Shown piece after piece: positions 1 to 333 of a stretch of DNA of 333 nucleotides (positions are counted from its first letter, which is position 1; every line of letters starts with the position of its first letter). Position numbers and translations under genes: made by a program. The stretch is from the NCBI RefSeq assembly GCF_003334385.1, contig NZ_QOWN01000200.1; one strand, given 5' to 3'. Source of the DNA: Escherichia coli (GTDB lineage Bacteria > Pseudomonadota > Gammaproteobacteria > Enterobacterales > Enterobacteriaceae). The notes beneath the pieces were generated by a model. That model did no database searches, was not told the origin of the DNA, and was given only the letters and a program-made list of their open reading frames with translations.

Positions 1-212
1 CCGGCACGCCAGACCGCAGTCACACCGTGTATCACGGGATTACCGTCCGTGTCCGTCAGCGGGGTTTTGTTCACCAGGATACTCTGCAGTCCCTTCACCG
101 GGCCTTCTATCGGTCCCTCACCAATGGCATCAATCACACTCATCATCTGCGTGGATTTGAGATTATCCTTCGCCTCACGCGGTGTGTGCCCCTTGCCGCC
201 CCCTTTACCCAC
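1..212 (-). CDS. J: Phage host-specificity / central tail fibre (tail tip) protein, lambda gpJ-like; N-terminal 70 codons only, 3' end runs beyond the window
   Basis: Minus-strand translation from GTG at +212..210 gives MGKGGGKGHTPREAKDNLKSTQMMSVIDAIGEGPIEGPVKGLQSILVNKTPLTDTDGNPVIHGVTAVWRA with no stop before the window edge. This closely matches my memory of the lambda gpJ N-terminus (MGKGSSKGHTPREAKDNLKSTQLLSVIDAISEGPIEGPVDGLKSVLLNSTPVLDTEGN...). A purine-rich Shine-Dalgarno sequence lies just upstream. GC is about 59% by hand count. Start choice is by homology; the same frame stays open further upstream but contains no better start. Confidence 0.85.
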   Translation of the reverse strand, partial: MGKGGGKGHTPREAKDNLKSTQMMSVIDAIGEGPIEGPVKGLQSILVNKTPLTDTDGNPVIHGVTAVWRA

Positions 213-216
213 TCTG

Positions 217-228
217 TCCCCCTCTCCT
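217..228 (-). promoter_or_regulatory. Ribosome-binding site (Shine-Dalgarno) for the J-like CDS
   Basis: Minus-strand sequence AGGAGAGGGGGA (AGGAG at +224..228) lies 5-11 nt upstream of the GTG start at +210..212. Confidence 0.5.
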
Positions 229-255
229 GTCTGATGTCTGAATCTGTTTATGCCC

Positions 256-287
256 AAAAAACAACAGGCACCCCGGAGGATGCCTGT
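256..287 (-). terminator. Rho-independent (intrinsic) terminator, minus-strand orientation
   Basis: Minus-strand RNA reads 5'-ACAGGCAUCC-UCCG-GGGUGCCUGU-3': a 10-bp GC-rich stem with one G.U wobble and a tetraloop, followed at once by UGUUUUUU then GGG. On the plus strand the hairpin is preceded by an A-tract and not followed by a T-tract, so it is unidirectional for minus-strand transcripts. Confidence 0.65.
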
Positions 288-333
288 ATCATGACTGAAT
301 AAAAATTCTGAATATCTTCACATTTTCACAAAC

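Follow-up and report, generated by a model that had tools for sequence, protein, structure and literature searches.

An AT-rich patch ahead of tail gene J in Escherichia coli prophages as the probable upstream half of the pasB small RNA promoter

The window, a stretch of 333 nucleotides of Escherichia coli DNA, begins inside J, the tail-tip and host-specificity gene of lambdoid prophages, and ends in a short AT-rich patch (288-333) on the far side of a hairpin. This raises the question of what the patch belongs to. An earlier note on the same DNA took it as possibly the 3′ end of a moron-like protein gene on the minus strand, representing acquired cargo or a mosaic joint in the place of a canonical tail assembly gene I. 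Our analysis indicates that the patch is in all likelihood non-coding and forms the upstream half of the promoter of pasB, the gene for an Hfq-dependent small RNA (sRNA), with the adjacent hairpin being a separate terminator in the J sense. The pasB gene itself is already published; the reading of the patch as a gene end is rejected.

The AT-rich patch and its genomic setting

GC content is 0.261 over 288-333 against 0.585 over 1-212 and 0.52 over 213-287, in agreement with the fall from about 59% (1..212) to about 26% (288..333) that the earlier note had counted by hand (58.5% and 26% as measured). The same holds over a larger region: across the 10.3 kb of relative L001, 46-nt windows have a mean GC of 0.572 (sd 0.082) and those at or below 0.27 start only at 4998-5004, which is the AT-rich patch. 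The low GC arises because the patch is promoter-type sequence, made up of an A/T tract, a CRP-like palindrome and a -35 hexamer (Table 1).

Prophages in 1,888 of 5,426 complete E. coli genomes match the window, as do 150 phage records, the majority of them from Stx-converting phages. The best matches (97-99% identity) have the order H-M-L-K-I, a 249-nt unannotated gap, J and lom, with gpJ as the annotation in all of them; everything said here about DNA past position 333 rests on relatives at this level of identity. The genes follow the canonical H-M-L-K-I-J order. The gene upstream of the gap is a full-length I homologue, 67% identical to lambda I (E = 3e-105) with a GC of ~0.6, so the proposed non-canonical alternative to gene I falls away. 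In the relatives that extend the window, gene I ends ~170 nt beyond the TGA at 289-291. The I-J spacer measures 60 nt in lambda, 249 nt in the window type, ~343 nt in L010 and L011 and ~907 nt in L118.

Relatives share the spacer as blocks: pasB with its promoter and the AT block, the hairpin, and the J leader. The breakpoints between blocks recur at the same positions (spacer query 162 and 204), which points to modular recombination within the 249 nt. Spacers of the PPompW type part from the others right after TTTTAT. The J leader (213-253) consists in part of CAGACAT heptamer repeats and is kept in most relatives; the copy number of the heptamer (window 229-247) is two in the window type, three in L039 and four in L007. 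In Stx2a_WGPS2 (L008 ~615-1015) an IS66-family transposase lies directly after the J-sense terminator, at the site where the J leader and start would be expected.

Table 1 Features of the 333-nt window
Feature	Position	Strand	Basis or remark
5′ end of J, tail-tip/host-specificity gene	1..212	-	GTG start 212..210; 70 codons in window; translation VGKGGGKGHTPREAKDNLKST...
Shine-Dalgarno-like sequence of J, AGGAGAGGGG	219..228	-	Direct sequence reading
J-sense intrinsic terminator	254..287	-	Stem-loop 287..264 and U-tract 263..254; ends 41 nt before J start
Junction of terminator module and pasB cassette	288..296	.	Homology between spacer types breaks about here
TGA closing the frame of the earlier note, not a functional stop	289..291	-	Frame unconserved
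A/T tract GAATAAAAAT	297..306	+	Adjoins CRP-like site upstream; outer edge of pasB cassette
CRP-like palindrome TCTGA-ATATCT-TCACA	307..322	+	9/10 core positions of TGTGA-N6-TCACA
-35 TTCACA of pasB promoter	325..330	+	Promoter scan of relatives; -10 lies 14 nt beyond window edge

The minus-strand frame that suggested a protein gene is present. Frame 0 reads VCENVKIFRIFIQS over 14 codons and then stops at TGA 291..289, 1 nt from the stem as drawn and 2 nt from it if the A-U closing pair is left out, and stops do occur in all three minus-strand frames between position 333 and the start of J. A stop codon 1-2 nt ahead of a strong terminator would suit a hairpin-terminated, moron-like gene ending here, as would the 39-aa ATG open reading frame found in frame in Sakai-type spacers and the 100 open codons in L009. 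In the 12 relatives compared, however, the frame lacks the combination of start codon, adequate length and conservation that a gene ending at 289-291 would have. It is open for 18-100 codons, and the longest reading from any start codon to the stop is 10 aa in most of them; in L001, 48 codons are open and translation from the sole start codon would yield 10 aa. Upstream peptides are unrelated owing to frame-shifting indels, and only the last dozen residues persist, the DNA there being conserved on other grounds. RefSeq has no annotated gene at this place, the opposite strand of the same DNA encodes the validated PasB RNA, and a search of both strands of the I-J spacer for a conserved open reading frame found none. 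The hairpin is a feature of the junction that is present also where no such frame exists, with lambda and a third spacer type each having an unrelated one at that place, so it does not serve as the end of this frame. A protein gene ending at this TGA is therefore barely credible: the proposal has the wrong strand, the wrong coding nature and the wrong end of a gene, since what the window contains is the upstream end of an sRNA gene. There is thus no hidden cargo protein gene upstream of J, and a false lead is removed. A 50-aa ‘hypothetical protein’ called in phage 1720a-02 (AGR48338.1; L004 359-511) spans the I stop, the PasB terminator and the PasB body in a frame unlike that of the earlier note; it is probably spurious.

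pasB in the I-J spacer and its probable counterparts in EHEC

PasB was reported from prophage PP6 of EPEC E2348/69 as an RNA of 83 nt (NC_011601 1466343..1466261, minus strand) between E2348C_1436 and 1437, with an orientation given as ‘(> <) >’ and a Northern probe of sequence AATCCCGCAGTGATCGCGGAGCT (Pearl Mizrahi et al. 2021, PMC8550237). These two flanking genes are I and J. The probe AATCCCGCAGTGATCGCGGAGCT occurs verbatim in the spacers of L001, L002, L003 and L010, all of which extend the window at 97-99% identity. With I and J as flanks, the spacer therefore carries pasB, transcribed away from J. The assignment combines (i) location in the I-J spacer of a lambdoid prophage; (ii) convergent orientation with I; (iii) sequence identity; (iv) a 3′ intrinsic terminator with a U-tract. 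pasB lies on the + strand of the window and ends 6 nt past the stop codon of I, its terminator being ~80-100 nt downstream of the promoter in the relatives. The -10 TATAAT, the transcription start site (TSS) and the gene fall at window-equivalent ~347-454, and the RNA itself is outside the window because the window stops 14 nt before the -10.

PasB has been validated by Northern blot and takes part in 37 RIL-seq interactions; in an hfq deletion strain its level drops ~110-fold in the activating condition and ~5-fold in the non-activating one (PMC8550237). Among the expression values tabulated in that study, baseMean is 482-1082 for pasB against ~5 for I and ~15 for J (PMC8550237), a contrast that implies pasB is expressed on its own from a silent prophage. 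The level of pasB was higher in overnight static LB than in virulence-activating medium, in a comparison confounded by growth phase (PMC8550237). A 2026 preprint by Zhu, Shabalina and Storz describes PasB as embedded in a phage structural-gene operon and gives 1,158 hits. One part of the cargo or mosaic idea of the earlier note thus stands, in that the patch is extra, modular and independently expressed DNA; the cargo in this case is an sRNA gene that codes for no protein and lies on the opposite strand. In the sense of Juhala et al. 2000, a moron is extra DNA between genes that are adjacent in related phages, and this describes the spacer. Its own promoter and terminator are both predicted, expression from a repressed prophage is taken from the literature (PMC8550237), and the product is an sRNA rather than a protein.

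The published 5′ end of PasB, which comes from RNA-seq coverage (L003 1044, with the -10 at ~L003 1066-1071), is ~17 nt further downstream than the TSS that the 11/12 promoter predicts. The additional 5′ stretch, GCGUUAGUGUUUUUUU, would base-pair with the CA-rich region. Either approximate annotation or processing of the RNA would account for the mismatch. The CA-rich RNA (AACAAAAACAAC) had suggested an AgvB-type anti-GcvB sRNA; this was rejected, as AgvB lies downstream of PR′, has another sequence and gives no match with its Rfam model. Rfam scans under E-value and gathering thresholds gave no match at all: the AgvB, AsxR, Esr41 and STnc100 models fail, and the best model, Hrs1 (E = 0.32), is far below its gathering score.

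In EHEC O157 Sakai, three homologous Hfq-bound RNAs on the + strand have been reported, EcOnc22 (Sp15), EcOnc23 (Sp14) and EcOnc24 (Sp11), the first giving a band of ~85 nt and losing stability when Hfq is absent (PMC4104026). In the current Sakai record each of the three lies in an I-J spacer, on the PasB strand. The region ECs2161...ECs2162 ranks 48th among Hfq-crosslinked intergenic regions and has a ~100-fold strand bias. The coordinates in Table S2 of Tree et al. 2014 run ~+139 relative to NC_002695.2 at 1.94 Mb (AgvB1 at 1941922 against 1941783). With this offset, calibrated at AgvB1 as the one landmark, the EcOnc22/23/24 peaks sit on the PasB body and terminator; uncorrected, they apparently sit on the J leader. 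At ~80% identity, their spacers retain both terminators as well as the CRP-like site with its spacing, whereas the RNA body and the -35 have diverged (TTCCGG, with -10 AATAAT). The PasB paper lists no EHEC homologue (PMC8550237). We infer that EcOnc22/23/24 are very probably the EHEC homologues of PasB, which joins two literatures so far unconnected.

A CRP-like site at a fixed distance from the pasB -10

The predicted pasB promoter, TTCACA-16-TATAAT (11/12; L001 5009..4982), is the same in L001 and L010. The CRP-like palindrome just upstream is the one such match in the window, against 0.01 expected per window, and the sole match in the 10.3 kb of L001. When 12 spacers were aligned, the patch proved more conserved than the PasB body and than the promoter hexamers. 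Viral contigs were scanned with the PasB terminator as anchor to avoid selecting on the motif, which gave 143 anchored sites; nine of these were unrelated chance terminators and ten (five distinct sequences) had the whole promoter region replaced. Both CRP-like pentamers are kept in 65 of 66 distinct intact spacers, the remaining one having a single half-site change.

Within 52 distinct promoter variants the N6 takes at least seven forms. TCACA and the -10 are always 24 nt apart, even as the sequence between them diverges almost completely. The hexamer at -35 usually matches poorly (TCCGGC, TTCTGT, TTTGCA). Homology ends ~8-10 nt upstream of the CRP-like site and the contexts beyond differ completely; the A/T tract is kept as (A)ATAAAA(A/T)T in nearly all variants, whatever lies upstream, and is possibly an UP-like contact for the α-CTD of the polymerase. 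Taken together, fixed spacing, conserved pentamers and a weak -35 are what an activator site would be expected to show. The second half-site reads TCAGA in every case and never matches the consensus. The centre of the palindrome is at -44.5 from the TSS predicted by the -10 and at ~-60 from the published coverage-based 5′ end; canonical CRP centres are at -41.5 (class II) and -61.5 (class I).

On this pattern in the sequence, control of pasB by cAMP-CRP through the palindrome stands at slightly under an even chance. cAMP-CRP would bind 307-322, activate pasB and tie the sRNA to carbon status. Spot 42, which CRP represses, behaves oppositely to pasB in being lower in overnight LB, with growth phase again confounding the comparison (PMC8550237). 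The conserved block could instead be a pasB promoter element of another kind: an UP element, a site for Fur, IHF, Fis or H-NS, or the target of a phage-encoded regulator. The block is indeed very A/T-rich with flanking A and T tracts, and a centre at -44.5 departs from the canonical CRP positions. The conservation pattern, however, in which a variable centre of 6 nt separates two invariant pentamers, is a CRP signature and not that of an UP element. A Fur box, which reaches 13/19 positions of the consensus when aligned by hand, was rejected: the matching bases vary between variants, and repression by Fur predicts more expression in iron-poor tissue-culture medium, opposite to the direction reported. 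We consider such a non-CRP element unlikely, if still a serious competitor. It is quite improbable that the block lacks a regulatory role and persists only as a linker for recombination where modules of mosaic lambdoid genomes meet. Homology breakpoints on both sides of the block would fit such a linker, but a linker has no need of a fixed 24 nt to the -10 across diverged promoters, and would not be copied with each cassette inside one spacer.

Such copying is seen in the L118 spacer (907 nt; 12175-13081), which holds four diverged pasB-like cassettes, each with a CRP-like site, these being the only four matches in 14.5 kb. Tandem arrays of 2-4 diverged cassettes occur also in L039, L061, L128 and L129, with two copies in L027 and L110; each arrayed cassette has its own CRP-like site and terminator. 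One L118 cassette (~12620-12772) has a different terminator, AAAAAATCTCCCGT...ACGGGAGA. The AT block recurs in every arrayed cassette, and the J-sense hairpin appears once, after the J-proximal cassette. In L020, L022, L052, L053 and L119 homology breaks at the 5′ end of pasB (...CATTAAC followed by TCAGAGAGGGAGGATG...; e.g. L020 minus strand, anchor 1516), and the promoter and CRP-like region are replaced by unrelated DNA with a GGTAAGGGGCCCGCCCCTTACC hairpin. The sRNA gene in these five is probably promoterless.

The J-sense terminator and a model for the cassette

The hairpin between the patch and J has the properties of an intrinsic terminator in the J sense: a GC-rich stem, a U-tract directly after it, and covariation. 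The terminator scanner gave a stem of 10 pairs (6 G-C), a loop of 4 and the tail TGTTTTTTGG; the fold has -20.9 kcal/mol (z = -3.7). Covariation is seen at one stem pair (T.G, C-G, T-A), and the U-tract persists. Lambda (-21 kcal/mol, z = -2.8) and the long spacer of the PPompW type (-33 kcal/mol, z = -4.9) have J-sense hairpins of unrelated sequence in the same position, likewise with U-rich tails. Both were found by folding, as the scanner missed them, likely because a G.U extension of the stem consumes the T-run. The lambda I-J spacer (15445-15504; L016 846-905) has the hairpin GAAACCGCC-UGCG-GGCGGUUUU with a U-rich tract just before J. Since the hairpin is single in arrays and has unrelated counterparts at the same place elsewhere, it belongs to the I/J junction and neither to pasB nor to any open reading frame.

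The AT block and hairpin could alternatively be the body and Hfq-binding 3′ module of a second sRNA in the J sense, as might arise if the near-symmetrical pasB -10 drove transcription in both directions. An AU-rich single strand, a GC hairpin and U6 do resemble an Hfq module, and the block is among the best-conserved parts of the spacer. This would require a J-sense promoter, and no spacer type has one scoring at least 9/12; hand searches for a promoter driving RNA to the hairpin gave only poor hexamers. Hfq-CRAC reads at ECs2161...ECs2162 are ~100-fold strand-biased (21338 against 241) towards the PasB strand, the strand having been calibrated on the GadY and SdhX rows and on the strand of EcOnc24. 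No J-sense intergenic transcript appears among the entries listed in the RIL-seq tables (PMC8550237), which is weak evidence. The two supposed parts also separate: the AT block repeats with each arrayed cassette while the hairpin does not, and PPompW-type spacers keep the block and swap the hairpin. A second sRNA is improbable, and the reading as pasB promoter plus separate J-sense terminator is preferred.

In many lambdoid and Stx prophages of E. coli, pasB in all likelihood forms a self-contained cassette (upstream site, promoter, RNA of ~83-100 nt and intrinsic terminator) inserted between I and J, which the prophage expresses while the flanking tail genes stay silent. The J-sense terminator would stop polymerase lacking Q modification before J-lom-stf in the lysogen, and Q-antiterminated late transcription would read through it. 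Tentatively, and at somewhat less than even probability, the 22-bp CRP-like operator may be the outer defining element of a mobile sRNA cassette found in about one third of complete E. coli genomes, with cAMP-CRP switching on prophage sRNAs in silent lysogens and the J-sense terminator insulating the tail-tip gene and lom. The literature makes no mention of a promoter or of CRP for PasB, and neither the EPEC study nor the 2026 preprint describes a CRP-like site or a J-sense terminator. What appears to be undescribed so far is the CRP-like operator with the fixed geometry of the promoter, along with the tandem arrays and the link from PasB to EcOnc22/23/24; these are an incremental advance.

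The conserved CRP-like site, its fixed distance to the -10 and the weak -35 supply a regulatory hypothesis for a widespread prophage sRNA. If correct, prophage sRNAs driven by cAMP-CRP in silent lysogens would pass carbon status to the Hfq network of the host. In pathogenic E. coli, riboregulation encoded by prophages would thereby gain an input that senses nutrients, which would be an incremental step and not a novel type of system.

Promoters that combine CRP activation with a weak -35 include class II types such as galP1 and those of sRNAs such as CyaR and McaS. Like them, the pasB promoter has its site directly next to a degenerate -35, with constant spacing to the -10, and its RNA reaches a higher level in glucose-free stationary culture; it differs in a predicted centre of -44.5 instead of -41.5, and its site is a candidate only. 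The AgvB and AsxR ‘moron’ sRNAs of lambdoid prophages are likewise short, Hfq-binding, terminator-bearing autonomous units convergent with their neighbours. These anti-sRNAs, however, lie downstream of PR′ in the late-gene leader, not in the tail operon, and match neither in sequence nor in structure. The lambda I-J junction has the K-I-J synteny, the related I, a homologous J N-terminus and a J-sense hairpin with U-rich tract before J, yet its 60-nt spacer lacks a pasB cassette and the hairpin has an unrelated sequence. With PasB of E2348/69, of which the window holds only the upstream part of the promoter and none of the RNA, and from which it differs in the loop and J-leader sequences, the locus is the same: the probe sequence is identical, the terminator and the 11/12 promoter are shared, and the spacer aligns through the AT block and the hairpin.
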